Shown here piece after piece: positions 29,648 through 59,834 of a DNA stretch of 64,000 nt. This stretch comes from Dictyostelium discoideum (Eukaryota). The notes under the pieces are model-generated. The model made no database searches. It was not told the DNA's origin and was given only the letters and a program-made list of their open reading frames with translations. Position 1 is the first letter of the stretch; each line of letters opens with the position of its first letter. The stretch spans positions 5,280,001 to 5,344,000 of the forward strand of contig CM000153.2 in NCBI GenBank assembly GCA_000004695.1. Reading direction: 5' to 3'. The position numbers and the translations under genes were made by a program.

Positions 29648-29663
29648 TACCTCCATTTATTAT

Positions 29664-33029: not shown

Positions 33030-33030
33030 C

Positions 33031-33036: not shown

Positions 33037-33059
33037 AAAACAAAAATAATATAGTCACA

Positions 33060-33070: not shown

Positions 33071-33188
33071 CGATAAAAAATAACGATAATTCATATATGA
33101 ACCTATTAATTCCTTTAATAAACATTGATTAATATATAAAAAATTTAATTATTTTAAAAAAAATTTATTTGTTATTTAAATTGTTTTT

Positions 33189-34169: not shown

Positions 34170-34214
<45 letters not shown>

Positions 34215-34329
34215 GAGTTTATTTCCTAATACTTTTTTTTTTCCCACCGTCATAAATACCAATATAAAATAGTAGAATTTTATTATTTTTTTTAGACATT
34301 ATTTTAAAATATGATTTATTTTGTAAATA

Positions 34330-34800
34330 TTAAACTTTGTGATACAATTCTGTTAATTTTTTATTACTTAAAGAATACTTTAAAATTTCACTTGGATCAA
34401 AATATTCTTTAATTAAACAAATTTTTCCATCATTATTTACTGTTAAAAAGAAAGCATATTCATTTATGTAGATATTGTCTCCATAACCAACTGCACTTGT
34501 TCTTGCTTCCATAATTATTAAATTTTTTTCAATATTAAATGTTTTGTTTGATTCTGTAAATGAAAATTGATCATAACCATGAATTAATGGGATCATGTCG
34601 TTTAATCTTTTTTGAATTGGTTTCCAACCTGAAAATGGGTACATATTTTCATCTCCAGACATCCACCATTGGTCTGATTCTGGGTTATTAAAAATTTGGG
34701 ATATTAATTCTAAATTGTTAAATTCTCTATTATTAAAAAATTGAACAAATGAATCTGCAACTCTATTAAGTCTCAAAATGTTGTTTTCTTTACTTTCCAT
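34330..34800 (-). CDS. NTF2-like/SnoaL-like small protein (paralog 3 of 3)
   Basis: 156 aa with the same pattern (FVQFFNNREF...[22 protein letters not shown]...). Confidence 0.5.
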   Translation of the reverse strand: MESKENNILRLNRVADSFVQFFNNREFNNLELISQIFNNPESDQWWMSGDENMYPFSGWKPIQKRLNDMIPLIHGYDQFSFTESNKTFNIEKNLIIMEARTSAVGYGDNIYINEYAFFLTVNNDGKICLIKEYFDPSEILKYSLSNKKLTELYHKV

Positions 34801-36436: not shown

Positions 36437-36582
36437 TGTTGTAGGGAATTTTCCATAAAATTTCACTACAGTAGCGTAGTGAATTTTATTATTTAATTTC
36501 ACTACAGTAGCGTAGTGAAAAAAAAAAATCACTGACCTTAAATTTTTTTTTTTTTCAAAAAACAAATAAAGTTTATTAAATT
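36437..36582. repeat. Terminal inverted repeat (left) of the transposon; contains two copies of a 23-bp palindromic subrepeat TTTCACTACAGTAGCGTAGTGAA
   Basis: See mobile element; reverse complement of 39653..39797. Confidence 0.8.
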
Positions 36583-36639
36583 GAAATTTTATTTTTTGTT
36601 TTAATTATTATTTTATTTATTTTTATTATAATTATTGTT

Positions 36640-36672
<33 letters not shown>

Positions 36673-36813
36673 CAATTTTTTTTTTTTAAATTTTTTTCAA
36701 TTTTTATTTGTTTATTAAATTGTAATTTTATTTTTTGTTTTAATTATTATTTTATTTATTATTATTGTTAATTTTTTTTTTTTTTCAATTTTTTTTTTTT
36801 TAATTTATTTTTA

Positions 36814-39287
36814 TTAATTTATTTTTATTAACTCCCTGAGTTGTTCAATTGCTTGATTTACCATATCACTGTAAACACTGCACACAATTGAATTTTTTCT
36901 AGCTTTGTTACCTCTGGTGCATTTGATGTTTTTGCATTTTCCTTTGTATACAAAAAAGTCCAAATATAATTCGTTTTCTATTACAGTTTTTACACAATGT
37001 TGGTGAAATTGTTTTGATTTTAAGTGGAATGTTGGTAACATCATATTTGGATTTTTAACGATTAAAGCATCACCACTATTGACATATAGTACTTTGGGGG
37101 CTTTTTGGAGGAATTTAGTCAAATTTTCCTCTGAATCTAACTAATCTTCATTGCCATATTCAATGGATAAATTTTTTAAGAGTTGTATCGAATATATTAA
37201 TTAAGCGATCATTCTTTTTTTTTGAAATTTTTTTTTAATCAGATTTAGCAATTTTTTTTTTTTATCAAGTTTTTTCAATTTTTAATAAGTAATATTTTTT
37301 TTTATTTTTAATTATTTGTGTTAACAAATGTAATTTTTTTTTATTGATTTCAACACTTTGTTTTTATTTAATAATTTCCCCATACCCCCTTCTATTAATG
37401 CAACCAAATCAAGTTCTAATTTTTGTGTCCTTGTTGACTTTGTTTTTGCAACTTTTTTTGAAGGTATCACATTAACGATTTTTCCTATTGATGGTGATTT
37501 GGAAGGTGATTTAAATGGTGATTTAAATGGTGAATTGGAAGGTGATTTAAATGGTGAATTGGAAGGTGAAATGGATGGTGATTTGGAAGGTAATTTAAAT
37601 GGTGATTTGGAAGGTGATTTAAATGGTGATTTAAATGGTGAATTGGAAGGTGAAATGGATGTTGATTTGAGAGGTGATTTGGATGTTGATTTGAGAGGTG
37701 ATTTGGATGGTTTAGAATGTGATTTTAAAGGAGGTTTATTAACAATTGGTATCTTATGAGGACGGCCTCTGAGACGTTTAACAGTTGTTACTATACCACT
37801 ACCAGATTGTGGTATAGTATATGATGGTATTATTTGCACTTGAGGTATTGGTGGTACTATTTCTTTTAAATTCATATCCTTTCTCAAACAATTCATTAAA
37901 TTTGGCGCTGTTGGATTATTATTTAAAAATGGGAGTATTTCTTCTTGTTCCATTTCATTATTGAGTTTGTGTTGAAATGGATTATCGTTAATGATAGGTG
38001 GAATATTTGATGGATTGTTAAGAGCATCTTCCAAAACCCTAAATGGATCATTTTGTGTTACCAATTGATGCAAGTTGAAATTGGATAAATCCTTACCAAG
38101 ATTTTTAATAAACTGAACCAGAAATTCAATAACTTTCCCATCATTATTTAAATAAAGACCAGAAGTAAAAGAATCAATATCTTTTTGTATGTTTGGCGAT
38201 GTTCTAAAAATATCAACTGTTGATTGTTTATAAAGAACCAACTTGTTACCTCCTACAAAACCAGAGTATAAACCTTTTTTTTGAAGGCTATTGATTCCAT
38301 CTTCCAAAAATTCAAGTTTATAAAGTTGTTTAGTGTCTTCCTGTATTACCTTATGAATTTTACACAAAATCAATATTTTCTATTAGAATTAAATATAAAA
38401 TTTGTTAATTATTACTGTTTCATATATTATTAATCTTTATGTTTTAATTACTTACATTATTTTTTTTAATTTCTAGAAAGAGTACAGTATCACCAACTTT
38501 CAATCCCTTTGGTGGTTTTGAATTCCATTGATTTTGGTAACTTGTGAGATTTTCAAGAATAATAGCTGTTATTTCTTCTTTTGAAACATCTGAAACACCA
38601 ATTGATTGAGAGTCTTGTTCTGATTGCACATTAATAAACAAAGGTACAATACCAACAGCTTGAGATGGTGTCATTTTAATTGTTCTTGTTTTTGTATTAT
38701 TGTAATCATACAAAGCTTGTTTTAATAGTTCAGAAAGAGACCTAGAAGTACCATCAAGAAAACTAAAATTTATTTATAAATGATTAATTAATAAACATAT
38801 CGATAATTTATATTGTTCAAAATATCATACTCTTGTTGTTTTAATTTTGAGATCCTCTCCTTGATAGTTCGATTCAATCTTTCTACCATACCTTGAGTTG
38901 TTGGTGTACGAGGAGCTCCATGTGCTGACTTGGAGCCTGGAAAAAGTTTTAGGAATTCTTTTTGGACTTTGTTTTTAAATTCACGTCCATTATCGCAGTG
39001 CCATACTTTCACAGAGTTTTAATATAAAAGTTACAAAACATCATATAAAAAATGATTGATACCAAACCTTTTATTCTATTTCGTTGGCAAATGTCACACG
39101 TATCTACTGCATCAGATACAAAAGAATACAATCCCATATTATAATATTTAGTCTTGTAGTTCCCATAGGTTGCATCTCTTCCTATATGACCTTTATGCAT
39201 TTCTTCCCAGAGTGATACCATTCTATAATCATTAATTACTTCTAAACACACTTCTTTTGATATATTTCTATCTCCGCCACAATTCAT
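36814..39287 (-). CDS. Transposon-encoded integrase/transposase region: H2C2 zinc finger + rve DDE core + C-terminal region with AT-hook/SP[LF]K repeats, split over several ORFs (introns or decay).
   Basis: ORF 39009..39287 carries HKGHIGRDATYGNYKTKYYNMGLYSFVSDAVDTCDICQRNR (integrase H2C2). ORF 38788..39012 carries DNGREF...GAPRTPTTQGMVERLNRTIKE (rve core motif). ORF 37321..38373 has RLRGRPHKIP (AT-hook-like) and SP[LF]KS repeats. Further ORFs 38444..38713 and 36814..37122 lie on the same strand. Confidence 0.6.
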
Positions 39288-39652
39288 GACTTTTTTTTCA
39301 ATTCTAAATAATTTTTCTTTTCTGTTTCTGTTTTTTATTGGTCAGAATTTAAAAAATGATTGTGTTATGGTAAGGAAAAATATTTACTCATCATGTAAAA
39401 ATTTATAATTTTTATGTTTAGTATTTTCAAAATTATTATCTTCAATAAATTTTAAATAATTTATCTTGTTTCATTTTGGGAAAATGAAAATAAAAAAAAA
39501 AAAAAAAAAAAAAAAAGTTTTGTTGGGGAAAAAAAAAAAAAATTTTGGCGCAAAAAAAAAAAAAAAAAATAAAATAAAAAAAAAAAAAAATAAAATAAAA
39601 AAAAAAAAATAAAAAAACTTAAATAGAACTAATAATCAAATAAAAGATAATA

Positions 39653-39797
39653 ATTTAATAAACTTTATTTGTTTTTTGAAAAAAAAAAAAATTTAGGGTC
39701 AGTGATTTTTTTTTTTCACTACGCTACTGTAGTGAAATTAAATAATAAAATTCACTACGCTACTGTAGTGAAATTTTATTGAAAATTCCCTACAACA
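39653..39797. repeat. Terminal inverted repeat (right) of the transposon
   Basis: Reverse complement of 36437..36582 with two mismatches. Confidence 0.8.
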
Positions 39798-42700
39798 ATC
39801 ACCACCTGCAATATATTTATATTCAGTTTTATCATTTGGATCATTTTTTGTTGTTGTTGTTGTTTTTGCTGTTATTGGTAATAATTTTTCATCCATTTCT
39901 TTTTTCTTTTTATCTAATGAATCATTTATAATTTGATAAACCATACCAATTGAATTTGATTGAATTTGTTGAATTGTAATAAGATGTGGAGACCATTCTT
40001 TATCGACCCAATTCTTTAATTGTACTGTAATTAATGAATCAGCACCATAGTTTATCATTTTAATATTTGTATTAATTTTTGATGGATCAATTGAAAGAAG
40101 TTCAGAAACTTTGTTTAAAAATTTATTTTTTACATTTGTTGATGATGATGATTGATTGGTATCATTTTCCATTGATATTGAATTATCAACATTAATTGGA
40201 TTTAAAATGAAATCAAATTTTTGATGAAGTTTTTGTTTAAAACTTTTGAATAATGGCCAATTGAAATTATTAACAAATGCATTGGTTGGCATATTTGGAT
40301 TTTGAATTTGTAAATCTAAAGTACCCAATAATTGATTTGGTGATATTAATTCAACACCTTGACCACCTAGTACTGCTTCAACAAGTTTATGTCTTGAAAG
40401 ATAACCTCTATCACTTACACCACCAATGTTAATTGTAAATGATGGTAATCCAATTGATTTACGATATTGTGATAACGAATCCACTACACAACATGCTGAA
40501 ACATAACTACATTGATCAAATGAACCTAATACTGAAACTACTGATGATGCTAAAATGAAATTAATAATTTTCCAATCTCTTTTAATTGATAAATTATGTA
40601 AATTAACTGCACCAAACGTTTTTGCACTATGCGAAACATTTAAACTATTCATATCAATATCTTTAAGTTTTTTATTAATTTGTAAAGCTGCAAAATGAAA
40701 TATTGAATCAATATTTGTAATTGTTGGATTATCTTTTAAAACTTGATCAATTGTTTTATTAATTAAATTCCAATTACTAATATCACATTTTTTGAAATGA
40801 TATTTAATTTTATTGTTATTATTATTATTATTATTGTTGTTGTTATAATTCATTAAAAATTCTAATTCCCATTTTAATGATGATTTTGAAAGAATAATTA
40901 TATTTTCAACAGTTGAATTATATTTTGTTATCCATTTTAAAACTTCTAAAATTAAACCAGTTTGACCTGTAACCAATACATTTTTACCAAGATTTTTAAT
41001 TTTATAATCTGATTTTAATATTGAATAATCAATCATTGATTCTTTTTCAATTAATTTATCTATGATATCAGTATCATGTGAAATTACAATTTTACCAACA
41101 TGTTTTCTTTCTTTAATTGATTCAATTGATTTTTTAATATTTGAATTTGAAAATTCTGTAATTGGTATTAAAGCATTTAAAGTTTCATTTTCAATTGATT
41201 TTGAAATTGACTGTAATAATTTCTTAATTGTTGATTTTCCAACTTTTAAAATTTCAATACTATTATAACCAATATTATATCTATATCTACTATTATCAAT
41301 AAATTCATTTGGATTTAAATGAGTAGTTGTTAAATCTACAATTCTACCTTTTGGATTTAAACATTTAAAATTTGTATCCATAAATTCACTTGATAAAGTA
41401 TTAATAATTAAATCAACACCATGAGTTTCATAACCTAATTCAATTAATTTGTTTTTAATTTGTTTTTGATAATTTGTGTCTCTTGTTGAATAAATTCCAG
41501 TAATTAAATCACCATAGGTATTAATTAGATATTGTTTCTTTTCTTCTGATCCAACTGTAACAAATATTGGTGATGAATGATTATTTGATTTTAATATTTC
41601 CAATCCTGATAATCCAACACCACCAGATCCTGAATGAATTAATACTGATTCTTCATCTCTTAAATTACCAACATCATATAAACAATAAAGTGATGTTGAA
41701 TAAACTGCTGGAATTGAAGCTGCTTGAACATGTGTAATCTTTGATGGTTTATGACATGCTAATAATGAATCAATAATAATATGAGATGATGATGTTTCAT
41801 ATGCAATACCATAAACTTGATCACCAACTTTAAATTCTTTAGATGATTTAATTCCAACACGACTTACTACACCAGAAAAATCAAAACCAATACCAGCTTC
41901 ATTTACTTTTATCATTTCATTATATTTCAAATAATCTTTATAATTTATACCAGTTGCTTTAACTTTTACTTCAATTTCATATGGTTCTAAATCAATTTGT
42001 TTTGAATTTAATTGATATTCAAAATGTTCATCTAATTTTGAAACTAATTGATCTTGTTGTTTTGATAAATCATGATATGATTCAGATTTATAAGAATTCT
42101 TTAAATTTTTTAATTCTTTTTTATACATTTCAAAATAAACAGTACCACTATTTTTTATATAAAATTCTCTTTGAATATTATTTTTTGGATTAATTAAATA
42201 ATCAATGGTTTTGAATAAATCCAAATCATTTGTTAATGAATCTTTATCAAAATCCAATGTAAATAATTGTAAAGTTGGAATTTCATCAAAGTATCTTGCT
42301 GCACCTAAAACTGATGATGATAAATAATTACTTGATTGTGAATCACATGTAATTAAAACATGAGTACATTTTGATTTTAATTCATATAATTTTTGATTAA
42401 TTTGAACATATTCAAATGTTACTGATTTAAAGTTTTCCAATGTTAATTGTTCAATTGATTTAATAAAATAAATGATTGAATTATTTGTAATTGTTGTTGA
42501 TAATTTGTAAAATTCTTCAATTGTTGATACTTTTATTATTTTACAATTATTATAATGATTTTCAAATTTATTAATTAATTGTTGTTGTTGGAGTTGTTCA
42601 TCTTGATAACAATATAAAATTACTTGATCAAATGTGTTTATTGTTTTTGGTTGTAATTTTAATGATGGTTTTTGAGCTTGAATAATAATTGATTTAATAT

Positions 42701-42803
42701 CACTATCAGATATACTTGAAGATTTAATCATTATATCAGAATTGAAATTACAATTAACCAATAAGTTTTTCAATGATTCTTTATTATTTTCATTATTTAA
42801 TAG

Positions 42804-42868
<65 letters not shown>

Positions 42869-45800
42869 CATTTATTATTAAATAACCATTTGGTGTTAAA
42901 ATTTGATAAATTTGATTTAATGAATATTCAATATCTTTTGTTAAATTTGAAATATTTGAAACAATAATTAAATCATAATATGATGGATTTAATTTTTGTT
43001 TTTCTAATAATGAATTATCAACATCTAAACCTAATGAACGATAAAGAATACTTAAATAACCCTTATCTACTTTTGATAATTCTAATTTAGCATCTTTTAA
43101 AATTGATGAATTATTATCACTCCATGTATATTCAATATCAATTTCATAATGTGGATTTTCTTCGAGTAATGAATTGATTTCATTCAATAATAAAGTTGAT
43201 TTTGATAAATTATTACCACCAAATTCTAAAATTCTAAATTCCATCTTTCTATTAATTAATGGTTTAATAGTTTCTATAACAACATTTGGAATTAATAAAC
43301 CATCATCTACTTGATTATTTTGATAAATTGATTTAAATTCTAATGGTGATTGAATTTGTGAATCTTTTGATTGAAGATATGGTGTATAAATAAAATCAGA
43401 TGGAGTTTCAATTAATAATGGATCTTTAACTGGTGTTAATGATTTAACTACCAAGTTATCAACTTCAATGATAACAGTACCATCTTCTAACATAACAACG
43501 ATAGATGAAGAGAGTAAATCATCAGATGGAGATGATTTTAAAGTTGAATAAATAAAGATACTTGAATGTTCATCTCTATTTTTTGGAATATTTGAAGCAT
43601 AATATCTTAAACCTTCAACTTTATCTGTTACAATTTTACAATTCTTTTGAATGTATAGAATAACGGTACCATGGAAACAAGCATCAATGAGTGGACAATT
43701 GAAAAATGATTGTTCATCATGAAAGTTTTCAGGTAATTCTAAGGATATTTCAGTTAATGAACAATTATCACCAATATAACATTCAACTACTTTACTAAAA
43801 ATACCATAAAAGTTTGCACCCAATTGAGTTTTCATTAGTGAATAAAATTCATCCCATGGAATTGATGATAAATTACATTTTGTTTGTTTAATATCTTGAA
43901 TATCCAATTTTTGTTTTTCTTCATGATAATTATCATTACTATTTAAGTGGAAATTAGAATTTGAAGTATTTATCCATTGATTATTCATTTCATCTTTTAA
44001 ATGAAATTGTGCTCTATATTCACTTTTACCAGTTTGATAAACATTTGTTTGTAAACATTGCCCAATACCATCGGTTAATACAAATGGTACCTTAAATTCA
44101 ATTGAATTAATTGTTAAATCTTGATTTGGATATAATTTAAATATATTATCAATATAACCTGTTCCTGGGAAATAACATTTATCAGATACATTATGACCTT
44201 TTAAATATTTGAATGCATCTTTTCCAGTATCAATTATTGTTTGATATGATTTAATAAATGGATTTGAATCTTGCATTGAATTACCGAGAATTGAAATTGG
44301 TGGTCCAATTAAATTATTTTTATGTTCAATTGATTTATTTAACCAATAATGTTGATCATCCCATTGATATAATGGTAAATTAAAATTACTAATAGCCTCA
44401 ATATTGCTATTTATATTATTAAATTGACATTTAAAATTAATATCATAAGCATCATCACAAAATAATTGTGAAATTGATTTTTGAAATTCTTCAACATCAT
44501 TCTTTTTCTTGTGAAGTGTTGAATAAACTGATATTGATTCACCATTTCTAAAGTATTGTGATTGTTTTGGAATCATTTGTTTTAAATAAAATGATAATGT
44601 TGGATGTGGTGCAATTTCAATGAATACAATATTTGAACCGATTTGATTATCTTCAATATGTTTATATAAATTTGAAATTGTTTGAGTGAATGAAACTGGT
44701 TTTGAAATATTATCAAAGAAATATTCAGAATCAAAAATAGTTGATTCATTAAATAAATTTGATGTAACTGTTGAAAATGTTGGAATAACAGGTTGACTTG
44801 ATTGAATATTTAAATTTAAAATATCATCTTTAATTATATTTTGACTACTTGTATGAAAACTTGATAAACTTCCTAACATTGCTGAGAATATTTCTTTTTC
44901 TTTTAATTCTTTTGAAATTTCATTTAAAATTTGTTCATTACCTGCGATTACAATTGATGATGGTGAATTATAACATGCAATTTCAATAGTTGGGTAACGT
45001 GACATATAGTTAGTTTTATATTCATCTGAACTAATGTTAATTGATAACATTTTACCTGACCCATTTGTTCTTATTTGTAATGTTGATCTATGATAAATTA
45101 AATAACATAATTGGTCAATATCAATCATACCTGAACAATAAGCAGTTGTTACTTCACCAAGACTATGACCCAACATAAATGATGCTTTTATACCCCAATG
45201 TTTATAAAGTTCATATAATGATACTTGAATAATTACAGTTGATGGTTGTGCCATTGTTTGTTCATGAACTGAACATTTATCACTATCTTGAATTGCTCTT
45301 AATTTCTCTAAAATTGAATATCCAAAATAATTTTTCATTTTATTATCTAGCATATCCATCGAATTTCTAAATACTTTTTCATTTTTATATAATTCTAATG
45401 CCATTGTATTATATTGTGATCCTTGACCACAAAATACAAATACAGTTATTGGATTATTATTTTTATTTGTAATTGTAATATTTGAAGAAGTACTACTTGA
45501 AGTTTGATATTTAACTTGATTTTCAACATTATTAAAATCATTCCAATCTTTTGCAACAATTACTGATCTTTGATAAAGTGATGTTGATTTATTATAAATT
45601 TGATTTTTAACAAATTCTTCAAAACTATATTGTGATTCATATTCTTTATTTTCAATAATTAATGATTGATATTTTTTTAATGATTCAACTGAATTTGCTG
45701 AAAATGGAATTAAATAATTATTTATTTTTATATTATTATGATTATGATTATGATTATGATTATTATTATGATTATTTATATTATTATTTATAGTATTATA

Positions 45801-47230
45801 ATTAAATTGAGATAATACTAAACAACAATTTGAACCAGTTGCACCAAAATTATTAACAACCATTGAAGTATTTTTAAATTTATTAAATGGAATTGGTTCA
45901 GTTACAACTTTTAAATTCCATTCTTTAAATTTAATTGCTGGATTTGGTGTTTTAAAATGAATATTTGGTGCAAAACATTTGTTTTTATACATTAAACAAC
46001 ATTTGATTAATGAAGCAATACCAGAAGCAGCTTCACAATGACCAATATTTGATTTAAATGATCCAATTAATAATGGAGTATCAGTTGAACGAGTATCTTT
46101 AAAAACTTTTGAAATACCTTCAACTTCAATTGGATCACCAGTTGGTGTACCAGTGCCATGTGCTTCAACATAATCTATATCAGATGGTTTAACAGTTCCA
46201 TTGGTTGATTGAATTGCATTTTTTAAATTTTCAGATTGTGAAATTGATGATGGTGAATAGAAATTTGATTTATCAGAATAACCAATACCATCAACATTTG
46301 CACTTGCACCATTTATTGTACAATAAATTCTATTACCATCTTTAATTGCATCTTTTAAATTCTTTAAAACCACAACACCAATACATTCACTTCTTACATA
46401 ACCATCAGCTGATGCATCAAATGATTTACATCTACCATTTGATTTACTTAATATATTCAATGAAGAATATGCTTTAAAAAAGTAAGAGTCTAATAAAATT
46501 AAAAAATTTAATTAATAAATAAATATAAAGATAAAATTAAAAAAACTATTAAAAAAAAATACATACCAAGTAATATATTAACACCACCAACAATTGACAT
46601 TTTTGATTTTTTATTTTTGATTGAATCATATCCTAATGCGATTGCATTTAAAGATGATGAACATGCAGTATCTAGAGTTATTGAATTACCATGAAGATCA
46701 TAACAATAGGAGATTCTATTTGAAATCGCATGATTTAAACTTGAGAATACATTTGATTTTACTTCATTTTTATTGATATTATGATAGTCACTTTCGGTAC
46801 AACCAATGAAAACCGAAGTATCTGTACCTTTGATTGAAATTGGATCAATTAATGAATCTTCTAATGCTTCCCATGTACATTTTAATAATAATCTTTGAAT
46901 TGGGTCAATGGTTGGTGCTTCATTTGGATTAATACCAAAAAAGAGTGGATCAAATGATTTAACTTCATCCAATGGTAATAGTCCTGAATAATTATTTGCA
47001 ATTTCATGATTTTTGAAAAAGTTATCATTGAATCTTTCTGATGTTTTCACTACACCATCGAAACCATTTATTAAATTATTCCATAATGTTTGAGGTGTAT
47101 TGTTTCTTTCATTTTCAATACTTCCACTTGGTAATCTAAAGCCAACACCAACAATTGCAACTAAATTTTCTTCAACATGTTTATCATCAACTTGTAAAAT
47201 TTCTGCTTTATTTATTTTATTTTGTTTCAT
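39738..47230 (-). CDS. Iterative type I polyketide synthase (KS-AT-DH-cMT-ER-KR-ACP). Its C-terminus reads into the transposon TIR and stops there. Exons join(complement(46567..47230),complement(39738..46479)).
   Basis: KS: DTACSSSL (exon 1), [19 protein letters not shown]: [18 protein letters not shown]: [17 protein letters not shown]. cMT-like: [15 protein letters not shown]: [19 protein letters not shown]: [19 protein letters not shown]: [11 protein letters not shown]. The phase-1 intron (donor ctt g|gtatgt, acceptor ttttattag) splits GGVNILL | [24 protein letters not shown]. The final 8 codons ([17 protein letters not shown]) are encoded by the TIR. Confidence 0.85.
39798..39802. repeat. 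Target-site duplication ATCAC (right copy)
   Basis: Matches 36432..36436. Confidence 0.75.
42803..42868 (-). repeat. (CAA)n microsatellite encoding a 22-residue polyGln inside PKS1 (cMT/linker region)
   Basis: ttgttgttg... run on the plus strand. The protein reads [37 protein letters not shown] versus [19 protein letters not shown] in the paralog. Confidence 0.85.
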
Positions 47231-47639
47231 TATTTTTTATAAATAAATTATTAATTAATTTTTATTTTAATTGAGTGAAGGCTTTTTAAATAATATAAAA
47301 TAAAATAAAATAAAAAGAAAAGCTACTATTTAATTTTAAAACCAAATACTCTTTTATTTTTATTTTTTTTTTTATTTTTTTTTTTTATAATAATATAGTA
47401 TAGTAATAATACAAACCTTGATCTTATCATAATTAATAATGATAACAAAAAAAAAAATTTTATAAAGATTGGAGATAATGGTTATTAATATTAATAGTTA
47501 AATAAAAAACACTATAAAAGGATCCTTTATTTTTTTAGATAATATGGTTGTGGGGTCGTAAAAAAAAAAAAAAAAAAATAAATTAATGAAAAATAAAAAA
47601 AAATAAAAATTAAGTATTTTTTCTATAACAATTTAATAA

Positions 47640-47702
<63 letters not shown>

Positions 47703-47780
47703 TGATTAATAGTTAAAATTACCTAAATTTAGATATCAATTACCTGTTAAATTATAAAATTCCTCGAACATCCATTATTT

Positions 47781-47837
<57 letters not shown>

Positions 47838-48049
47838 TTCCTATAAATATCTCATTATTTTTTTTTTTGATTAATAAATTGATTATATTTTAGTAATGTT
47901 TAAAATTTTAAATATTTTTTTTAAAAAAAAAAAAAAAAAAAAACAAAAATTATTCATCTTTTATTTAACAAATTTAAACATTTTAAATATTTTTTTAAAA
48001 AAAAAAAAAATTAATTTTTTTTGGATGGATTTAAAAAAAAATTTTAAAT

Positions 48050-48886
48050 TTAAAAATATTTTTTTTTTATTCTTAATAATGGAGTATTATTATTAATATT
48101 AATAATTCCATCAGTACCATTTTCATAAGAAATTTTAAAAATTCCATTTGTATAGTAATAGAAACCTTCGTCGAATTTTAAAAAAAATACAAGACCAGTT
48201 AATATATTTGAAAATTCTACGAAATAATTTGCAGAATATTTCAATTGACCAACTGAAATTGGATTTAAATTAAAAGAGAAAACATTTACAAAATCATTTA
48301 AAGAATTTGTTTTTTCTTGATATATTAAAACACCATTTTCAGTTTCACTTTCAATGATTCTATATATTTTTGTATTATTTGTTAATTTTGGAGATTGACC
48401 AATTTCATTGCCAATTTCAATTGGAAAATAACAAGATAGAAAAGTGAAACAAGCATCAACCAAGTATTTTTTATTCTTAAATTCCATTACATTGCAATAA
48501 TGAAGTCCGATATTTGGGTATACCAAATTCTCTCCACCGTCAATTGCTTTAATTAATTGAACTTTTATTCCAAATTCTTGTAATAACATACCAAATAATA
48601 TATTATGGTTTAAACAAATATTGCCAACCTCTTTCTCTATCATTGTTTCAACAATATAATCCATATCGATTGTTGGTCCATCTTTTAAAACGTCAATATT
48701 ATTATATGGAAAATGTTCTGCAAATTTCACCATTAACAATTCAAAATCATCCAAACAATTTAATTGAAAATCAATTTCTAAATTTAATTTTGGTAATATA
48801 ATTTCTTTAAAATTATATTTTTTATTTGCTAATTTTAATTCTTCATAACTGAAATGTAAAAAATAGTCTTTGTCATTAATTTCCAT
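48050..48886 (-). CDS. Arylamine N-acetyltransferase (NAT)-family protein
   Basis: 278 aa. The NAT catalytic-cysteine motif region reads EKEVGNICLNHNILFGMLLQEFG (compare RGGWCLQVNHLLYWAL in human NAT). Downstream His/Asp region is HYCNVMEFKNKKYLVDACFT (compare HLLLQV...YIVDAGFG). The gene lies between the two divergent PKS genes. Confidence 0.6.
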   Translation of the reverse strand: MEINDKDYFLHFSYEELKLANKKYNFKEIILPKLNLEIDFQLNCLDDFELLMVKFAEHFPYNNIDVLKDGPTIDMDYIVETMIEKEVGNICLNHNILFGMLLQEFGIKVQLIKAIDGGENLVYPNIGLHYCNVMEFKNKKYLVDACFTFLSCYFPIEIGNEIGQSPKLTNNTKIYRIIESETENGVLIYQEKTNSLNDFVNVFSFNLNPISVGQLKYSANYFVEFSNILTGLVFFLKFDEGFYYYTNGIFKISYENGTDGIININNNTPLLRIKKKYF

Positions 48887-48896
48887 TTTTTTTATT

Positions 48897-48932
<36 letters not shown>

Positions 48933-49079
48933 CAAAGTATTGTTTATTTTAAATGAAATTATAATTAAATATAAAAATTAGAGGAATTAAATATATTTTA
49001 AGGGTATAATTTAATTTTTTAAAAATTAATTTATAAAAATTAATAATTTTTATAATAATACCCAAAATTATCTGTTGAT

Positions 49080-49121
<42 letters not shown>

Positions 49122-49410
49122 AACGAAAATCCCAAATTATTTATAAAAATGGTGTGTCATTGTTCGTGGATTCAGGACCCAAAAAATAAAATAATAAAAA
49201 AACAATTCAAGTTCCCATTGAGGAACTTGTTCTTAAATGGGTAATTTTTGAGAAAACTTTATTATTTTTATCAGATAATAGATATAATTTATCTTTTAAT
49301 TACTTTAATACCATTAAATTATTAATAATTTAAAAAAATAATATTATTTATTATTTCCTACACAATTTTAAAAATTAAAAAAACAATTATAAAAAAAAAA
49401 TTTTAAAAAT

Positions 49411-49485
49411 AAAGAAGTGAGATTAATATTTTTCCACAACTTGGAATTCTAAAACCAATACAAATGTGCATTATCTCACTTCTTT
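49411..49485. repeat. Perfect 13-bp inverted repeat (AAAGAAGTGAGAT ... ATCTCACTTCTTT) with a 49-nt spacer, in the NAT/PKS2 intergenic region
   Basis: Exact complementarity of 49411..49423 and 49473..49485. Confidence 0.6.
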
Positions 49486-49946
49486 ATTTTTAAAATTTTT
49501 TTTTTATATTTGCCATACCTTAATAATCTATTATTTTTTTTCATTTTCACAATTTTAATTAATTAAGCTATTTAATTTATCATTCATTTTTAAATTTTAA
49601 TTTTAATTAAACAAAATTTTTTTTTTTATTTTTAAAAATTTATTTTTGTTATTAGTATTTGTTTATAAATGATCTTTTTTTTTTAAAAAAATTAATTTAA
49701 ATCTTTGAATCTGTGTCTATTAATTTATTTTTATTTTTTTTTTTTTTTATAAAAAAAAAAAAATTTGATGTGCAAATCGGGTTAAAAAAAAAAAAAAAAA
49801 AAACAAATGGATTTGTTCTATCTAAATAGGGTTAATAGAAAAAAAATTTAGGTTTTCAAAAAAAAAAAGTTCTGTATTTGTTATTGTGGTAACTTTTTTT
49901 TTATAATTTTTCATTTTTTTTTTTTTTTCCATTCATTTACATTTTT

Positions 49947-50405
49947 AACACCACACCAAAAGTTTAAATATATACAAAGGTTTTTTTGAAATGTGGTGTA
50001 TTGTTGTGAGATTCAATGGTTAAGTGGATATTAAATTTTAATTTTAAAAAATTTTTAATAACCTAATAGTAATCAATAACTCAAATTTTAGAAAAAAAAA
50101 AGAAAAGTAGTATCAATAAAGTGGAAGAAAAAAAAAAAAAATTTTAAACCACCAATTTATAATTTCATATAAAAAATTATTAATGCTTAGTAAAAGAATA
50201 CAAAATTTTTTTGCTTCCCATTGAAACTTTCACTAGATAATCCAGTGATTTTTTTAACATGTAATCTAACACTTTAAAAGAGTAAAAATTATGTAAGCAA
50301 TACTATAAACACGTGATACAATTTATTTATTTATTATTAATAATAAGAAACAAACCACACCAAAATTTTTATTAATATAAGAAAAAACCACACCAAAATT
50401 TTTAA
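49947..50405 (+). promoter_or_regulatory. Three CA-rich elements (ACCACACCAAAA) in the shared upstream region of PKS2 and the NAT-like gene, plus GT-rich counterparts at 49151..49176 and 49993..50019
   Basis: AACACCACACCAAAAG at 49947..49962. AAACCACACCAAAATTTTTA is directly repeated at 50353..50372 and 50386..50405, 150-200 bp upstream of the PKS2 ATG. GGTGTGTCATTGTTCGTGGATTCAGG (49151) and GTGGTGTATTGTTGTGAGATTCAATGG (49993) share a GTGT..ATTGTT.GTG.GATTCA core. Confidence 0.35.
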
Positions 50406-50550
50406 AGATAATATTAAAATATAATTTACTAATTTATATTAATATATTATTATTTTTTAAAAAAAAAAAAAAATAAAAATTGATTTAAAAACAAATTTTA
50501 TATATTTTTGATTTTATATATTTATCAAACCAATAAAACAATTTTTAATA

Positions 50551-53500
50551 ATGGATAATAGTTATTTAAATAATCCCCAATTTGATATTAATAATGGTAA
50601 TAAAGAAGTTACAGATGATGATAATAATAAAAATAATCAAGATAATTTAGTAGCAATTGTTGGTGTTGGTTTTAGATTACCAAGTGGTGAAAATGAAAGA
50701 AATAATACACCTCAAGCATTATGGAATAATTTAATAAATGGTTTCGATGGTGTAGTGAAAACATCGGAAAGATTCAATGATAACTTTTTCAAAAATCATG
50801 AAATAGCAAATAACTATTCAGGACTATTACCATTGGATGAAGTTAAATCATTTGATCCACTCTTTTTTGGTATTACTCCTAATGAAGCACAAACTATAGA
50901 TCCTCATCAAAGATTATTATTAAAATGTACATGGGAAGCATTAGAAGATTCATTAATTGATCCAATATCAATCAAAGGTACTGATACTTCTGTTTTCATT
51001 GGCTCTTCAACAAATGATTATCTTACATTAAATAGAAATGAAGTAAAATCAAATGTGTTTGGTAGTATGGCTCATTCAATTGCAAATAGAGTATCCTATT
51101 GTTATGATCTTCATGGTAATTCAATAACTCTAGATACTGCATGTTCATCATCTTTAAATGCAATCGCATTAGGATATGATTCAATCAAAAATAAAAAATC
51201 AAAAATGTCAATTGTTGGTGGTGTTAATATATTACTTGGTATGTATTATTTTTAAAATTTTTTATTATATTTTATTTTTTACAAAATTATTAATTAAAAT
51301 TATATTATTATTTTTTTTTAAAAGACCCATATCCATATAAGGCATTCTCAATTTTGAATATGTTAAGTAAATCAAATGGTAGATGTAAATCATTTGATGC
51401 ATCAGCTGATGGATTTGTTAGAGGTGAATGTATTGGTGTTGTTATTTTAAAGAATTTAAAAGATGCAATTAAAGATGGTAATAGAATTTATTGTACAATA
51501 AATGGTGCAAGTGCAAATGTTGATGGTATTGGTTATTCTGATAAATCAAATTTCTATTCACCATCATCAATTTCACAATCTGAAAATTTAAAAAATGCAA
51601 TTCAATCAACCAATGGAACTGTTAAACCATCTGATATAGATTATGTTGAAGCACATGGCACTGGTACACCAAATGGTGATCCTGTAGAAACCGAAGGTAT
51701 ATCAAAAGTTTTTAAAGATACTCGTTCAACTGATACTCCATTATTAATTGGATCATTTAAATCAAATATTGGTCATTGTGAAGCTGCTTCTGGTATTGCT
51801 TCATTAATCAAATGTTGTTTAATGTATAAAAATAAATGTTTTGCACCAAATATTCATTTTAAAACACCAAATCCAGCAATTAAATTTAAAGAATGGAATT
51901 TAAAAGTTGTAACTGAACCAATTCCATTTAATGAAAATAAAAATACTTCAATGATTATTAATAACTTTGGTGTTACTGGTTCAAATTGTTGTTTAGTATT
52001 ATCTCAATTTAATAATACAAATAAACAAAAACAACAAATGAAAACAAAAATAAATAATTATTTAATTCCATTTTCAGCAAATTCAGTTGAATCATTAAAA
52101 AAATATCAATCATTAATTATAAATAGTAAAGAAAATGAATTAAAATATAGTTTTGAAGAATTTGTTAAAAACCAAGTATTTATTAAACCAACATCACTTT
52201 ATCAAAGATCTGTAATTGTTGCAAAAGATTGGAATGATTTTAATAATGTTGAAAATCAAGTTAAATATCAAACTTCAAGTAGTACTTCTTCAAATATTAC
52301 AATTACAAATAAAAATAATAATCCAATAACTGTATTTGTATTTTGTGGTCAAGGATCACAATATAATACAATGGCATTAGAATTATATAAAAATGAAAAA
52401 GTATTTAGAAATTCGATGGATATGCTAGATAATAAAATGAAAAATTATTTTGGATATTCAATTTTAGAGAAATTAAGAGCAATTCAAGATAGTGATAAAC
52501 GTTCAGTTCATGAACAAACAATGGCACAACCATCAACTGTAATTATTCAAGTATCATTATATGAACTTTATAAACATTGGGGTATAAAAGCATCATTTAT
52601 GTTGGGTCATAGTCTTGGTGAAGTAACAACTGCTTATTGTTCAGGTATGATTGATATTGACCAATTATGTTATTTAATTTATCATAGATCAACATTACAA
52701 ATAAGAACAAATGGGTTAGGTAAAATGTTATCAATTAACATTAGTTCAGATGAATATAAAACTAACTATATGTCACGTTATCCAACCATTGAAATTGCAT
52801 GTTATAATTCACCATCATCAATTGTAATCGCAGGTAATGAACAAATTTTAAATGAAATTTCAAAAGAATTAAAAGAAAAAGAAATTTTCTCAGCAATGTT
52901 AGGAAGTTTATCAAGTTTTCATACAAGTAGTCAAAATATAATTAAAGATGATATTTTAAATTTAAATATCCAATCAAGTCAACCTGTTATTCCAACATTT
53001 TCAACAGTTACATCAAATTTATTTAATGAATCAACTATTTTTGATTCTGAATATTTCTTTGATAATATTTCAAAACCAGTTTCATTCACTCAAACAATTT
53101 CAAATTTATATAAACATATTGAAGATAATCAAATCGGTTCAAATATTGTATTCATTGAAATTGCACCACATCCAACATTATCATTTTATTTAAAACAAAT
53201 GATTCCAAAACAATCACAATACTTTAGAAATGGTGAATCAATATCAGTTTATTCAACACTTCATAAGAAAAAGAATGATGTTGAAGAATTTCAAAAATCA
53301 ATTTCACAATTATTTTGTGATGATGCTTATGATATTAATTTTAAATGTCAATTTAATAATATAAATAGCAATATTGAGGCTATTAGTAATTTTAATTTAC
53401 CATTATATCAATGGGATGATCAACATTATTGGTTAAATAAATCAATTGAACATAAAAATAATTTAATTGGACCACCAATTTCAATTCTCGGTAATTCAAT

Positions 53501-56500
53501 GCAAGATTCAAATCCATTTATTAAATCATATCAAACAATAATTGATACTGGAAAAGATGCATTCAAATATTTAAAAGGTCATAATGTATCTGATAAATGT
53601 TATTTCCCAGGTGCAGGTTATATTGATAATCTTTTAAAATTATATCCAAATCAAGATTTAACAATTAATTCAATTGAATTTAAAACACCTTTAATATTAT
53701 CAGATGATAATGGTCAATTTTTACAAACAAATGTTTATCAAACTGGTAAAAGTGATTATAGAGCTCAATTTCATTTTAAAGATAATAGAACAAATGTATG
53801 GGTTCAAACATGTACTGCTAATTTTCAATTATATAATAATGGTAAAGTTGATAAATTAAATTTAGAAGAAATTAAATCAACAAAATGTAATTTATCATCA
53901 ATACCATGGGATAAATTTTATCCACATATAAAAAATAGAACTGGTTTAAACTATAAAGACAAATTTCAAAATACAATTGAATGCTATCTTGGTGATAATT
54001 GTTCATTAACTGAAATATCATTAGAATTACCAGAAAACTTTCATGATCAAGAATCATTTTTTAATACACCAATTTTAGATATTTGCTTCCATGGTTCAAT
54101 TGTTTTAATTAAGGATAATTGTAAACTTGTTTTGGATAAAATTGATGGTTTTAAATTATATACATCAAACATTCCAAAAAATAGATTTGATCATTTAAGT
54201 ATTTTTGTATATACAACTATGAAATCAACAAAATCAAATTCATACAATTCAACATACACAGTAATGTTAGAAGATGGTACTGTTATACTTGAAGTTGAAA
54301 ATTTAATATGTACATCATTAACACCAGTTAAAGATCCATTATTAATTGAAATTCCAACTGATATGTATTATACTCCATATCTTCAATCAAAAGATTCACA
54401 AATTCAATCACCATTAGAATTTAAATCAATTTATCAAAACAATCAAGATAATGATAGCTTATTAATTCCAAATGTTGTTTTAGAAACAATTAAACCATTA
54501 ATTAATGAGCAAATGGAATTTAGAATTTTAGAATTTGGTGGTAATAATTTATCAAATTCAACTTTATTATTGAATTCAATCAATTCATTACTTGAAGAAA
54601 ATCCACATTATGAAATTGATATTGAATATACATGGAGTGATAATAATTCATCAATTTTAAAAGATGCTAAATTAGAATTATCAAAAGTAGATAAAGGTTA
54701 TTTAAGTATTCTTTATCGTTCATTAGGTTTAGATGTTGATAATTCATTATTAGAAAAACAAAAATTAAATCCATCATATTATGATTTAATTATTGTTTCA
54801 AATATTTCAAATTTAACAAAAGATATTAAATATTCATTAAATCAAATTTATCAAATTTTAACACCAAATGGTAATTTAATAATAAATGAACAACAACCAA
54901 ACAATGAAAATAATGAAAATAATGAAGATTCATTGAAAAACTTATTGGTTAATTGTAATTTCAATTCTGATATAATGATGAAATCTTCAAGTGTATCTGA
55001 TAGTGATATTAAATCAATTATTATTCAAGCTCAAAAACCATCATTAAAATTACAACCAAAAACAATAAACACTTTTGATCAAGTCATTTTATATTGTAAT
55101 CAAGATGAACAATTCCAACAACAACAACAATTAATTAATAAATTTGAAAGTCATTATAATAATAATTGTAAAATAATAAAAGTATCAACAATTGAAGAAT
55201 TTTATAAATTATCAACAACAATTACAAATAATTCAATCATTTATTTTATAAAATCAATTGAACAATTAACATTGGAAAACTTTAAATCAATAACATTTGA
55301 ATATGTTCAAATTAATCAAAAATTATATGAATTTAAATCAAAATGTACTCACGTTTTAATTACATATGATTCTCAATCAAGTAATTATTTATCATCATCA
55401 ATTTTAGGTGCAGCAAGATACTTTGATGAAATTCCAACTTTACAATTATTTACATTTGATTTTGATAAAGATTCATTAATTAATTTAGACATTTCGGTTA
55501 TAGATCATTTGATAGATCCAAAACAAAATACATTGATTGAATTCTTTATTAAAAAAAATGGTAAAGTTTATTTTGAAAGATTTAAAAAAGGTTTAAAGAA
55601 AAATTCTTTTAAATCAGAATCATATCATCAAATTACAAATGAACAAGAAATTTTAATTTCAAAATTAGATGAAAATTTAGATTATCAATTAAAATCAAAA
55701 GATTCAATTTTAAAACCATATGATATTGAAGTAGAAATTAAAGCAACTGGTTTAAATTATAAAGATTATTTAGTATATAGTGGTTTAATAAAATTAAAAG
55801 GTGATAGTGTTGATTTTGGTCTTGATTTTTCTGGTAGAGTTAGTCGTGTTGGAATTAAATCATCAAAAGAATTTAAAGTTGGTGATGAAGTTTATGGTAT
55901 TGGACAATCAACATCATCATCTCATATTATTATTGATTCAATGCATGCATGTCATAAACCATCAAAGATTACACATGTTCAAGCAGCTTCAATTCCAGCA
56001 GTTTATGCAACTTCAATTCATTCTTTATATAATATTGGTAATTTAAGAGAAGGAGAATCAATTTTAATTCATTCAGGATCTGGTGGTGTTGGATTATCAG
56101 CATTGGAAATATTAAAATCAAATAATCATTCATCTCCAATATTTGTTACAGTTGGATCAGAAGAAAAGAAACAATATCTAATTAATACCTATGGTAATTT
56201 AATCACTGGAATTTATTCAACAAGAGATACAAATTATCAAAAACAAATTAAAAACAAATTAATTGAATTAGGTTATGAAACTCATGGTGTTGATTTAATT
56301 ATTAATACTTTATCAAGTGAATTTATGGATAGCAATTTCAAATGTTTAAATCCAGAAGGTAGAATTGTAGATTTAACAATTACTCATTTAAATCCAAATG
56401 AATTTATTGATAATAATAAATTTAAATATAATTTTGGTTATCATAATATTGAATTATATTATTGTGAAAAGCCAACAATTAAGAAACTATTACAGTCAAT

Positions 56501-57779
56501 TTCAAAATCAATTGAAAATAATACATTAAATTATTTAATTCCAATTACAGAATTTTCAAATTCAAATATTAAAAAAGCAATTGAATACATTAATGAACGT
56601 AAACATGTTGGAAAAATTGTAATTTCTCATGATACAGATATTACTAATAAATTAATTGAAAATCAACCTAAAATTGATTACTCTTTATTGAAATCAAATT
56701 ATAAAATTAAAAATCTTGGTAAAAATGTATTGGTTACAGGTCAAACTGGTCTAATTTTAGATATTATAAATTGGATTATGAAATATAATTCAACTGTTGA
56801 AAATATAATTATTCTTTCAAAATCATCAATGAAATGGGAAATGGAATTTTTAATTAACAACAATAAGACAAAAATTAAATTCTATTATAAAAGATGTGAT
56901 ATTGGTGGTGATTCAGATTCAATTAATAAAACATTTGATAAATTGTTTACAGAAAATCCAACAATTACAAACATTGATTCAATATTCCATTTTGCAGTTG
57001 TACAAATTACAAGAAAAGTAAAAGATATTGATATGAAATCATTAAATATTTCACATGATGCAAAAACAATTGGTGCAATTAATTTACATAATCAATCAAT
57101 TAAAAGAGATTGGAAATTAAGTAATTTCATATTAGCATCTTCAATTCTTTCAAAAGTTGGTTCATTAGATCAATGTGGATATGTTTCAGCATGTTGTGTA
57201 CTTGACTCATTTTCAAAATATCGTTTATCTATTGGATTACCTGCATTATCAATTAATATTGGTGCTATGGGTGGAAGTGGAATGGTTGCAAGAAGTGAAC
57301 TTGTTGAAACTGTACTTAATGGTCAAGGTTATAATTTAACCTCAACAAACCAACTATTAGGTACAATTGATTTATTAATTCAAAATCCTGGTCAAGAATC
57401 AAATAATTTAATGGTTGGTAATTTTAATTTCCCAGTTTTTAATAATTTCAAACAAAAGATTCATCAAAAATTTGATTTTATTTTTAATGCTCTTGATTCA
57501 AACTCTGAAAATGGTGATGGTAGTAATATCAAAAATTCAACAAATATTAAAGATAAATTTTTAAACAAAGTATCAGAATTTCTTTCAATTGATTCATCTA
57601 AAATTAATAATGATATTAAATTAATGAATTATGGTGCTGATTCATTAATTACTGTTCAATTAAAGAATTGGGTTGATAAAGAATGGTCTCCAAATTTAAT
57701 TACAATTCATCAAATTCAATCAAATTCAATTGGTATGGTTTGTCAAATTATAAATGATAATTTTGAAAAAAAAAAATAA
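50551..57779 (+). CDS. Iterative type I polyketide synthase (KS-AT-DH-cMT-ER-KR-ACP), a paralog of PKS1 in inverted orientation. Exons join(50551..51238,51325..57779).
   Basis: Same domain motifs as PKS1 ([83 protein letters not shown]). The phase-1 intron (ctt g|gtatgt ... aaaag) splits GGVNILL | [24 protein letters not shown]. The stop comes right after the ACP (...[11 protein letters not shown]). Confidence 0.9.
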
Positions 57780-57967: not shown

Positions 57968-58337
57968 CTCACTGAGAAAATTATCAAACGTTATCAAATA
58001 AATAAGTTGATTTGATAATAACGTTTCTTTAAAGAAAAAATAATAAAAAAAAAAAAATCAATTATTATCAAATTATTAAGTTAATAAAAAGAAACGTTAG
58101 GTAACAAAATCATTCCCAAAGATATTTCAGATTTTTTTAATTCAACGAATTACAAATTTTTATTTTTTTAAATTTTTTTTTTCAATAAAAAAAAGAAAAA
58201 TCATCAAACAAAAAAACAAGATATTTTCCATGGTTTTTTTTTATTTTTTTTTTTTTTGCTTTTATATAAATAACGTTTATTTTTTTTTATTTTTTTTTAT
58301 TATTTTTTTATTTAAACTAAATAGTATAATAAAAAAA

Positions 58338-58401
58338 ATGGAACAAGAAAATAATAATAACAAAGACATAAAAACAATTGATAGTATCAATATCAATAAT
58401 G

Positions 58402-58472
<71 letters not shown>

Positions 58473-59834
58473 TTTGGTAGAAGGAACAGAAATAATAGAC
58501 CAAATGGTCAAAACCGTAGAGACTATGACGATAGAAGAAAGATTATATCTGAAAAACCAGAAAATCAACCAAGAAGTAATAATTATCATGGTAAAGGTAG
58601 AAGATACAATGATAGAAATAATTTAAATGTAGCTTCGTTGAATCAAAATGAATCCGTGGCAACTTCCAATACAACAACAACAACACCAACAACAACAACA
58701 CCAACAACAACACCAACAAACATAAATTCGAGTATAGAGAAAATTGAAAAAACTACATTATCAATAAAAGGATGGGGAGATAGATTACCAAAAATTGGAA
58801 AAACAATAACTTTTTTAAATTTTGAAAATTTAAGTATTCCAATTCCACAAGGTTATATACCAAATACAGTTACAAAAATTAAATTTGGTAGAATGTATAA
58901 TTGTGAATTATCGGTTGGTTCAATTCCAAATAGTGTTACCGATATACATTGGGGCAAAGGTGCAATTCCATTAGGAGGTGTGATACCAAATTCAGTTATA
59001 AATCTATCATTTAGTGATCAATTCTATCAAGATATAATACCAGGTAGTATTCCAAACTCTGTTAAATCAATTACCTTTGAAAATAGAATTGGTATTACTA
59101 AATTTGAAAGAGCCTATCATGGAAACCAAGTTAATAATGAAATCTCACCAAATGTTACACCAGTTTTACAAATTGGATCAATTCCATCATCAGTAACAAG
59201 TATTGAATTTGGTAGTTATAATTTTATTCCAAGTCCAGGTTTACTTCCAGATAGTATTAAATTATTGAAATTTGGTAAAGATTATACCCAAAAACTTTCA
59301 ATTGGATCAATACCAAACTCTGTAACAGATTTAGAACTTTCAAATAACAAATTCACATCAGAAATGATACCACCATCAGTAATAAATCTTTCATTTTATG
59401 AATGTTTTGGTGATTATGTTAATGTTGGCTCAATTCCAAATACAGTTAAATCAATTTCATTTGGTGCAAATTATAATAAACCAATCATTCAAGGAATGAT
59501 TCCACAATCAGTTGAAACAATAATATTTGGTAGAAATTTCAATAATACAATTTCACAAGATTCATTACCAAAAAATCTTAAAACATTAATATTTGGTAAT
59601 AGTCATAATCAAGTTTTTCAACCCAATGTATTACCACCATCATTAACAACTTTAGAATTTGGTGAAAGTCAAAGATTTAAAATTGATGAAAAATCATTAC
59701 CATCATTAAAAAACTTTAAATATAATAATAAAATATATGCTCAAGAAATTCCAAATCCGCCACCACTCCCAGAAGGTTCAGGTTATTTTTATTTGCAATT
59801 TAAACATTATAATGATAGAGGTTATAAAGATTAA
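58338..59834 (+). CDS. FNIP-repeat protein with N-terminal polyAsn and a basic, RNA-binding-like region
   Basis: ATG at 58338. An (aat)n polyN tract, then GRRNRNNRPNGQNRRDYDDRRK, then >10 FNIP-type repeats (IPNSVTDIHWG, IPNSVKSITFENRIG, IPSSVTSIEFGSYNF, LPDSIKLLKFGKDYTQ, ...). Confidence 0.6.

Follow-up and report, generated by a model that had tools for sequence, protein, structure and literature searches.

Two polyketide synthase (PKS) genes of Dictyostelium discoideum AX4, pks24 and pks25, lie head-to-head in the 64,000-nt window analysed here (the whole stretch of DNA, to which all coordinates refer) and raise the question of how a single gene pair can be almost identical in some segments and well diverged in others. 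An earlier note on this DNA had seen a near-identical KS-AT half joined to a diverged DH-to-ACP half, and had taken this combination as a sign of recent gene conversion. The answer that we favour, with a probability of about 0.88, is recurrent, lineage-independent gene conversion between the pks24 and pks25 arms, confined to the same segments, together with a recent conversion tract in AX4.

Two inverted PKS genes and their domains

The open reading frame (ORF) sets and the splice sites of the window define two highly reducing PKS genes, inverted and head-to-head, whose arms are joined by a long inverted repeat. Such an inverted paralog pair had been proposed by the earlier note, and it is borne out by ORFs, splice sites and Pfam where it had been placed, except that the exon-2 start of the minus-strand gene, given as 46479, lies at 46489 according to the splice sites. 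The spliced product of gene B is identical to Pks25 of AX4 (Q54KU3, DDB_G0287095) across all 2380 residues. The DNA thus comes from AX4 or from a strain nearly identical to it, and gene A is pks24, whose residue numbering is used throughout. The window has a GC content of ~22%, and the two genes are organised as follows.

47230-46567, minus strand: pks24 (gene A) exon 1, KS N-terminal half with the catalytic Cys190 (ORF, GT..AG splice sites, Pfam ketoacyl-synt)
46566-46490, minus strand: pks24 intron, 77 nt (splice sites)
39798..46489, minus strand: pks24 exon 2 up to a transposon; KS-C, AT, DH, cMT-like, ER, KR, ACP (Pfam; co-linear with the intact ortholog)
50551-51238, plus strand: pks25 (gene B) exon 1 (splice sites; spliced product identical to Q54KU3)
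51239-51324, plus strand: pks25 intron, 86 nt
51325-57779, plus strand: pks25 exon 2, KS-C to ACP, without R domain

The domains follow the order KS-AT-DH-(cMT)-ER-KR-ACP of highly reducing iterative type I PKSs. In pks24, Pfam hits above threshold placed KS (with KS-C) at aa 24-400, AT at 571-898, ER (hits to ADH_N and ADH_zinc_N_2) at 1724-2024, KR at 2059-2247 and ACP at 2332-2423, together with weak matches, both under the curated cut-offs, for DH (aa 979-1242) and for a methyltransferase-like region (~1338-1471). The catalytic motifs DTACSSS and HGTGT of KS, GHSLGE of AT, HxxxGxxxxP of DH and DSL of ACP could be read in both proteins. The pks24 orthologs are 2803-2852 aa long and end in a C-terminal NAD_binding_4 reductase (R) domain; as pks25 has no such domain, the homology between the arms ends near A 39900 / B 57780.

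A mosaic of homogenised and paralog-specific segments

A global nucleotide alignment of the two AX4 arms gave an identity of 87% over the whole arm, very unevenly distributed. Rather than two halves, at least five homogenised tracts alternate with at least five paralog-specific blocks, as listed below with the identity between the copies and, for some tracts, the synonymous divergence (dS).

aa 20-143, A 46802..47173 (-) / B 50638-51003 (+): partly homogenised KS N-terminal tract, 94% nt, dS 0.23
aa 144-170, A 46721..46801 (-) / B 51004-51084 (+): KS island 1, paralog-specific, 69% nt, 52% aa
aa 171-221, A 46568-46720 (-) / B 51085-51237 (+): homogenised tract round the catalytic Cys, 98.7% nt
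aa 224-252, A 46398..46484 (-) / B 51330-51416 (+): KS island 2, at the exon 2 start, paralog-specific, 83% nt
aa 253-996, A 44166..46397 (-) / B 51417-53609 (+): largest homogenised tract (KS-C, linker, AT, DH His motif), 97.5% nt, 96.2% aa, dS 0.049
aa 997-1256, A 43386..44165 (-) / B 53610-54371 (+): DH block, paralog-specific, 77% nt, 63% aa
aa 1257-1620, A 42294..43385 (-) / B 54372-55418 (+): homogenised cMT tract, 96.1% nt, dS 0.077
aa 1621-1800, A 41754..42293 (-) / B 55419-55952 (+): psiKR/ER N-terminal (ER-N) block, paralog-specific, 81% nt
aa 1801-1935, A 41349..41753 (-) / B 55953-56357 (+): homogenised mid-ER tract, 95.1% nt, dS 0.078
aa 1936-2068: mixed, 87% nt
aa 2069-2420, A 39894..40949 (-) / B 56757-57779 (+): KR and ACP blocks, paralog-specific; KR (2069-2330) 77% nt, ACP (2331-2420) 85% nt

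Sliding-window and block-wise Nei-Gojobori estimates gave a copy-to-copy dS of 0.03-0.08 in the fully homogenised tracts versus 0.28-0.72 in the divergent blocks. The mosaic is present at synonymous sites as well, and its breakpoints are sharp, in line with what had been expected of gene conversion when a check by sliding-window identity and synonymous divergence was first suggested. Between aa 523 and 1021 the copies differ at 13 of 1495 nt, and the longest run of identity between them reaches 293 nt, whereas the same number of differences placed at random gives 55 nt on average and 103 nt at most. At A 44165 / B 53610, give or take a few nucleotides, identity drops to the 77% of the DH block. 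The long identical peptide quoted in the earlier note and the largest tract share their end point, the DH HxxxGxxxxP motif.

Near-identity had been thought to run from the start of exon 2 through AT/DH; this holds for aa 253-996 (97.5% nt) but not for the first ~30 codons of exon 2, which are divergent (83% nt). The expected low identity throughout cMT, ER and KR was not recovered, as the cMT is back at 96.1% nt and the mid-ER at 95.1%, and only DH, psiKR/ER-N, KR and ACP are low. As for the KS exon 1 and the 5' flanks, both of which had been described as diverged, the flanks of the two genes are indeed unrelated, their identity of 55-65% being that of the AT-rich background, whereas exon 1 is 94-99% identical save for its first ~20 codons and an island of 27 codons (69% nt).

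Grouping by genome and grouping by ortholog

In a protein search, close relatives of the pair came from D. citrinum, D. cf. discoideum and further D. discoideum assemblies only; the paralog next in line was ~52% identical. Both copies from AX4, from three other genomes of the D. discoideum complex and from D. citrinum were aligned. The order pks24 / N-acetyltransferase-fold (NAT) gene / pks25 is common to all five genomes, and since this arrangement is conserved in the four genomes other than AX4, the duplication is older than the split between D. discoideum and D. citrinum. The copy-to-copy identity profile is nearly alike in each of the five.

In the high-identity tracts, the copies within one genome are 93-100% identical, as compared with 84-94% for AX4-D. 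citrinum orthologs, and in the low-identity blocks the orthologs cluster together across genomes. Sorting of the quartet sites of AX4 and D. citrinum gave 333 sites in favour of grouping by genome, 326 in favour of grouping by ortholog and 20 of the third type. These sites fall into 72 runs versus 330.5 expected (z = -20.2), the longest by-genome run extending over 135 sites versus a permutation maximum of 19, and the switch from one type to the other takes place within 7-45 nt at the main boundaries. The by-ortholog sites concentrate in DH, psiKR/ER-N, KR and the KS islands; the ratio of concerted to orthologous sites is 161:5 in aa 253-996, 84:3 in the cMT tract and 8:106 in the DH block, and the sites of KR/ACP are almost all orthologous. 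For aa 253-996, the copy-to-copy dS in four genomes was 0.049 (AX4), 0.075, 0.050 and 0.065 (D. citrinum), while the dS between AX4 and D. citrinum orthologs was 0.33-0.35; in the DH block the corresponding values were 0.30-0.58 between copies and 0.33-0.43 between orthologs.

The dS contrast, the sharp breakpoints, and the grouping by genome in some segments versus by ortholog in others strongly support concerted evolution in which gene conversion acted in each lineage separately; the preference of the earlier note for conversion over a simple recent duplication is upheld with it. An inversion of the spacer, such as a crossover between the arms would give, was found in none of the five genomes, the orientation of the NAT gene relative to the flanks being constant.

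A separate observation concerns a stretch of 64 nt with few polymorphic sites (A 41867-41804), over which the copies are identical in four genomes and not in AX4.

Conversion at several depths and a private tract in AX4

By-genome sites occur also in closer comparisons, 123 of them between AX4 and D. cf. discoideum and 52 between AX4 and a second D. discoideum, and conversion events therefore took place at several depths. In the AT region, the pks25 genes of three other genomes share B-specific states that are missing from AX4 pks25. At 19 sites where A and B are fixed for different states in three other genomes, the A state is present in AX4 pks24 in all cases (19/19) and in AX4 pks25 in 13. 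In the DH block, which served as a control, AX4 kept its own state at 130 of 131 sites in pks24 and at 127 of 131 in pks25. The switch points delimit the following tract.

~B 52188-53605 (+) / A 45587-44170 (-): AX4-specific tract, pks24 to pks25, ~1.4 kb

Transfer within it was non-reciprocal, with pks24 as the donor and pks25 as the acceptor. This AX4-specific tract of ~1.4 kb overlies the older pattern and yields the near-perfect identity that had first been noticed. The picture of two halves shaped by a recent event is retained in part: a recent tract exists in AX4, but the halves give way to alternating tracts, and the recent event is preceded by older, recurrent conversion.

The simplest reading of the earlier note, namely a single recent conversion or partial re-duplication that overwrote the KS-AT half, draws on this very tract, which is private to AX4 and in which pks25 has lost B-specific states common to three other genomes. 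However, four further genomes, D. citrinum among them, have the block pattern too, complete with its tracts in the cMT and the mid-ER, and the concerted sites were gained separately in each lineage, at more than one depth. We consequently regard a single event as very unlikely.

Origin and constraint of the divergent blocks

The divergent blocks could, in principle, stem from domain swapping, one copy having received them from a third PKS paralog, with the remainder of the pair being a young duplicate. With ~40 PKS paralogs, Dictyostelium offers possible donors, and the identity of 63-68% aa between A and B in the divergent blocks is not far above the 45-55% seen with other PKSs. Yet among the 120 best homologs found by BLASTP, A and B are mutual nearest relatives in every block; a third-paralog donor was looked for in this set and rejected, no homolog being closer than the partner copy. 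In addition, dS in the divergent blocks (0.3-0.6) is unsaturated, and a young duplicate cannot account for copies that, in two species whose synteny is conserved, group by genome, which makes this origin most improbable.

As to the constraint on these blocks, the internal branch of the four-taxon comparison had a dS of -0.116 in the homogenised tracts, and a dS of 0.16 with a nonsynonymous divergence (dN) of 0.17 in the divergent blocks. The ratio dN/dS (omega) of the divergent blocks was 1.09 on the branch separating the paralogs (bootstrap 0.75-1.76) versus 0.16 (0.13-0.20) after speciation, and the post-speciation omega of the homogenised tracts was 0.19. One KS island lies 20-46 residues ahead of Cys190 and the other 34-62 residues past it; their peptides are almost invariant within each paralog in the five genomes, with flanks that are identical in both copies. 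Given the branch omegas and the invariance of the KS islands, the divergent blocks evolved fast in protein after the duplication and have since been conserved in each paralog. The KS islands may bear on substrate handling.

These values are also relevant to the view that no conversion took place, and that an old duplicate was held under stronger purifying selection in KS, AT and cMT than in DH and KR. In its favour, KS and AT tend to be conserved better than any other PKS domain, and the near-identical tracts have a low dN. The contrast nevertheless persists at synonymous sites (0.05 versus 0.3-0.7), the ortholog dS is 0.33 where the paralog dS is 0.05, and at the 333 by-genome sites the copies of one genome share states unlike both copies of the other species; furthermore, the constraint after speciation is equal in the two classes of segment (omega of 0.16 and 0.19). 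Purifying selection without conversion is, in our opinion, scarcely credible. Finally, an artefact in which the arms were collapsed or copied in the reference assembly, for which the difficulty of ~1.4-kb near-identical inverted repeats for older assemblers could be invoked, can be dismissed, as a few arm differences remain inside the tract, the Pks25 protein also exists under a second accession from another assembly, and the same block structure recurs in four independent assemblies, whose contigs measure 1-5.6 Mb.

Tract limits and proposed mechanism

Hidden Markov models of mismatch density, run for each genome, gave block edges that agree within a few nucleotides in the four genomes of the discoideum complex and within ~130 nt in D. 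citrinum. The account that we favour is as follows. The two genes descend from a duplication before the D. discoideum / D. citrinum split and form inverted arms round a spacer of 3.3 kb; since then, interlocus gene conversion without crossover (non-reciprocal) has repeatedly copied one arm onto the other, separately in each lineage. It has done this only in the KS core, in the segment from KS-C through AT to the DH His motif, in the cMT and in the mid-ER, while the two KS islands, the DH body, psiKR/ER-N, KR and ACP diverged fast in protein early on and then stayed constant within each paralog. Conversions entering the divergent blocks would be purged by selection, since they would erase paralog-specific function, and a nucleotide divergence of ~23% at the block edges would also halt the extension of the heteroduplex; either or both of these brakes could set the tract limits, and together they would account for tract ends that coincide in all genomes. 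The latest event in AX4 was the copying of ~1.4 kb of pks24 into pks25. The data show the tracts, their separate occurrence in each lineage, their common limits and the direction of the AX4 event, whereas the molecular pathway and the cause of the limits are inferred.

Several points weigh against this proposal. The GC content of third codon positions (GC3) is no higher in the converted tracts, so that there is no footprint of GC-biased conversion by which to mark them independently. The recombination pathway is read from sequence patterns, and selection and heteroduplex rejection, as causes of the limits, are inseparable with the present data. The comparison includes one species only from outside the D. 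discoideum complex, and as the pks24 sequence of D. citrinum ends near aa 2300, the ACP block was tested only against D. cf. discoideum. Lastly, dN/dS was obtained by the Nei-Gojobori method in a genome of ~22% GC, so that absolute values and an internal-branch omega near 1 are rough, and the confidence interval of omega on the paralog branch includes values < 1.

Beyond the mechanism, we tentatively entertain, as a possibility with the odds against it, that the pair is a two-enzyme system whose common chassis (KS core, AT, cMT, ER core) is held identical by recurrent conversion and whose programming parts are kept different by selection; these parts would be the two KS pocket islands, DH, the ER start, KR and ACP, together with the R domain found in pks24 only. 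If this were true, the conserved tract ends would mark natural junctions at which domains of iterative PKSs can be exchanged with their function preserved, and the same partition might extend over the ~40-member Dictyostelium PKS family. The shared tract ends as such suggest candidate junctions for domain swaps.

Relation to known systems

Arm-to-arm conversion in large inverted repeats is known from the palindromes of the human Y chromosome. There too, non-crossover conversion maintains the likeness of inverted arms that flank a short spacer, in keeping with the lack of spacer inversion at the pks24/pks25 locus; the arms of the Y palindromes are, however, near-uniformly identical, whereas those of pks24/pks25 are mosaic, with blocks that conversion never crosses. 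Conversion limited by selection between tandem paralogs is known from the primate red/green opsin genes and from RHD/RHCE. Here the likeness is that most of the gene is homogenised and that a few function-defining segments remain paralog-specific across species; the differences lie in protein family, orientation and organism. For D. discoideum itself, Zucko et al. (2007) reportedly described clusters of PKS genes that strongly resemble each other.

Concerted evolution of KS and AT has been documented within the modular type I PKS clusters of bacteria, and the question was then left open for the Dictyostelium PKS genes (Jenke-Kodama et al. 2006, PMC1592344). In the bacterial clusters, as in the present pair, recombination or conversion homogenises some domains between repeated units while others stay different. 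The bacterial units are nevertheless modules of one assembly line, whereas pks24 and pks25 are two separate, inverted, iterative eukaryotic genes, and their tracts, unlike the bacterial ones (PMC1592344), are dated against speciation by means of orthologous loci.

According to a 2025 study, the two genes have a common promoter region and probably belong to one pathway (PMC12625978), and knockout and metabolomics evidence for their acting in one pathway has recently been provided (PMC12625978). For pks24/pks25, a full-text search of the literature library used here returned no account of a mosaic or of conversion tracts, of how these are conserved between species, or of the transposon in AX4 pks24, nor did it return one of such a mosaic for other Dictyostelium PKS genes. 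The process is thus a known one and the example new, tidy more than surprising. It offers a domain-resolved and species-calibrated case of concerted evolution in eukaryotic iterative PKS genes, and it shows which parts of Pks24 and Pks25 are effectively one enzyme and which are held different, an aid in reading the pathway evidence (PMC12625978).

A transposon in AX4 pks24

The AX4 copy of pks24 is interrupted between its ACP and R domains.

36437-39797, minus strand: insertion between the ACP and R domain of pks24, 3361 bp, with 269-nt terminal inverted repeats, a 5-bp target-site duplication (GTGAT) and integrase ORFs
35241-36436, minus strand: detached 3' end of pks24 with the R domain (NAD_binding_4), in frame and intact

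The ORF of AX4 pks24 stops at 39738, inside the insertion, giving a truncated product of 2471 aa. Within the insertion, Pfam matched the ORFs to Integrase_H2C2 (E = 6e-9) and, weakly, to the integrase core rve_3; with its terminal inverted repeats, target-site duplication and retroviral-type integrase, the element has the features of an integrase-encoding DNA transposon and is a candidate Tdd-4-like element. Removal in silico of the insertion and of one copy of the target-site duplication restores an intact ORF of 2848 aa which ends at 35241, and the insertion is therefore young. D. cf. discoideum lacks it at this locus, as direct DNA comparison revealed, and its absence from the other three genomes is implied by their full-length pks24 gene models. 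AX4 pks24 is thus cut off from its reductase release domain, and the laboratory lineage may not make the native product.

Neighbouring genes and further observations

The genes within and around the locus are as follows.

48050-48886, minus strand: N-acetyltransferase-fold gene (PF00797) in the 3.3-kb spacer, at the same position and in the same orientation as pks24 in 5/5 genomes
29664-30986, minus strand: cytochrome P450, downstream of pks24
27684-28631, minus strand: epimerase/3-beta-HSD-type reductase, downstream of pks24
within 27684-34800, minus strand: three small ORFs of 156-163 aa downstream of pks24, with no Pfam hit
25570-27430 and 58230-59834, plus strand: FNIP-repeat genes, on both sides of the PKS cluster

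In other strains, pks24 is likewise followed by the small ORFs, the cytochrome P450 and the reductase, an arrangement suggestive of a biosynthetic gene cluster. By way of speculation, the NAT-fold enzyme of the spacer might serve in chain transfer or release, as pks25 has no release domain. Short stretches of the small ORF nearest to pks24 recur downstream with 74-82% nt identity, and the three small ORFs may be related to each other.

Two further features of the PKS proteins were noted. The S-adenosylmethionine (SAM) motif of the methyltransferase region (pks24 aa ~1338-1471, window ~43220-42820) reads ILEFGGNN and looks degenerate; the cMT domain may be inactive, although it is among the segments held identical between both genes. 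In AX4 pks24, moreover, stretches of 23 Gln, of 11 Asn and of mixed His/Asn are located inside or beside catalytic domains, at aa ~455-475, ~1440-1462 and ~2113-2125 (window ~45870-45800, 42910-42840 and 40890-40850). Since these stretches are much shorter in pks25 and in the D. cf. discoideum ortholog, those of AX4 pks24 are recent trinucleotide-repeat expansions.

At the protein level, other adjacent PKS pairs of D. discoideum, D. firmibasis and D. purpureum show identical windows of 40 residues alternating with windows of 50-70% identity, and mosaic conversion may be general in the Dictyostelium PKS family.

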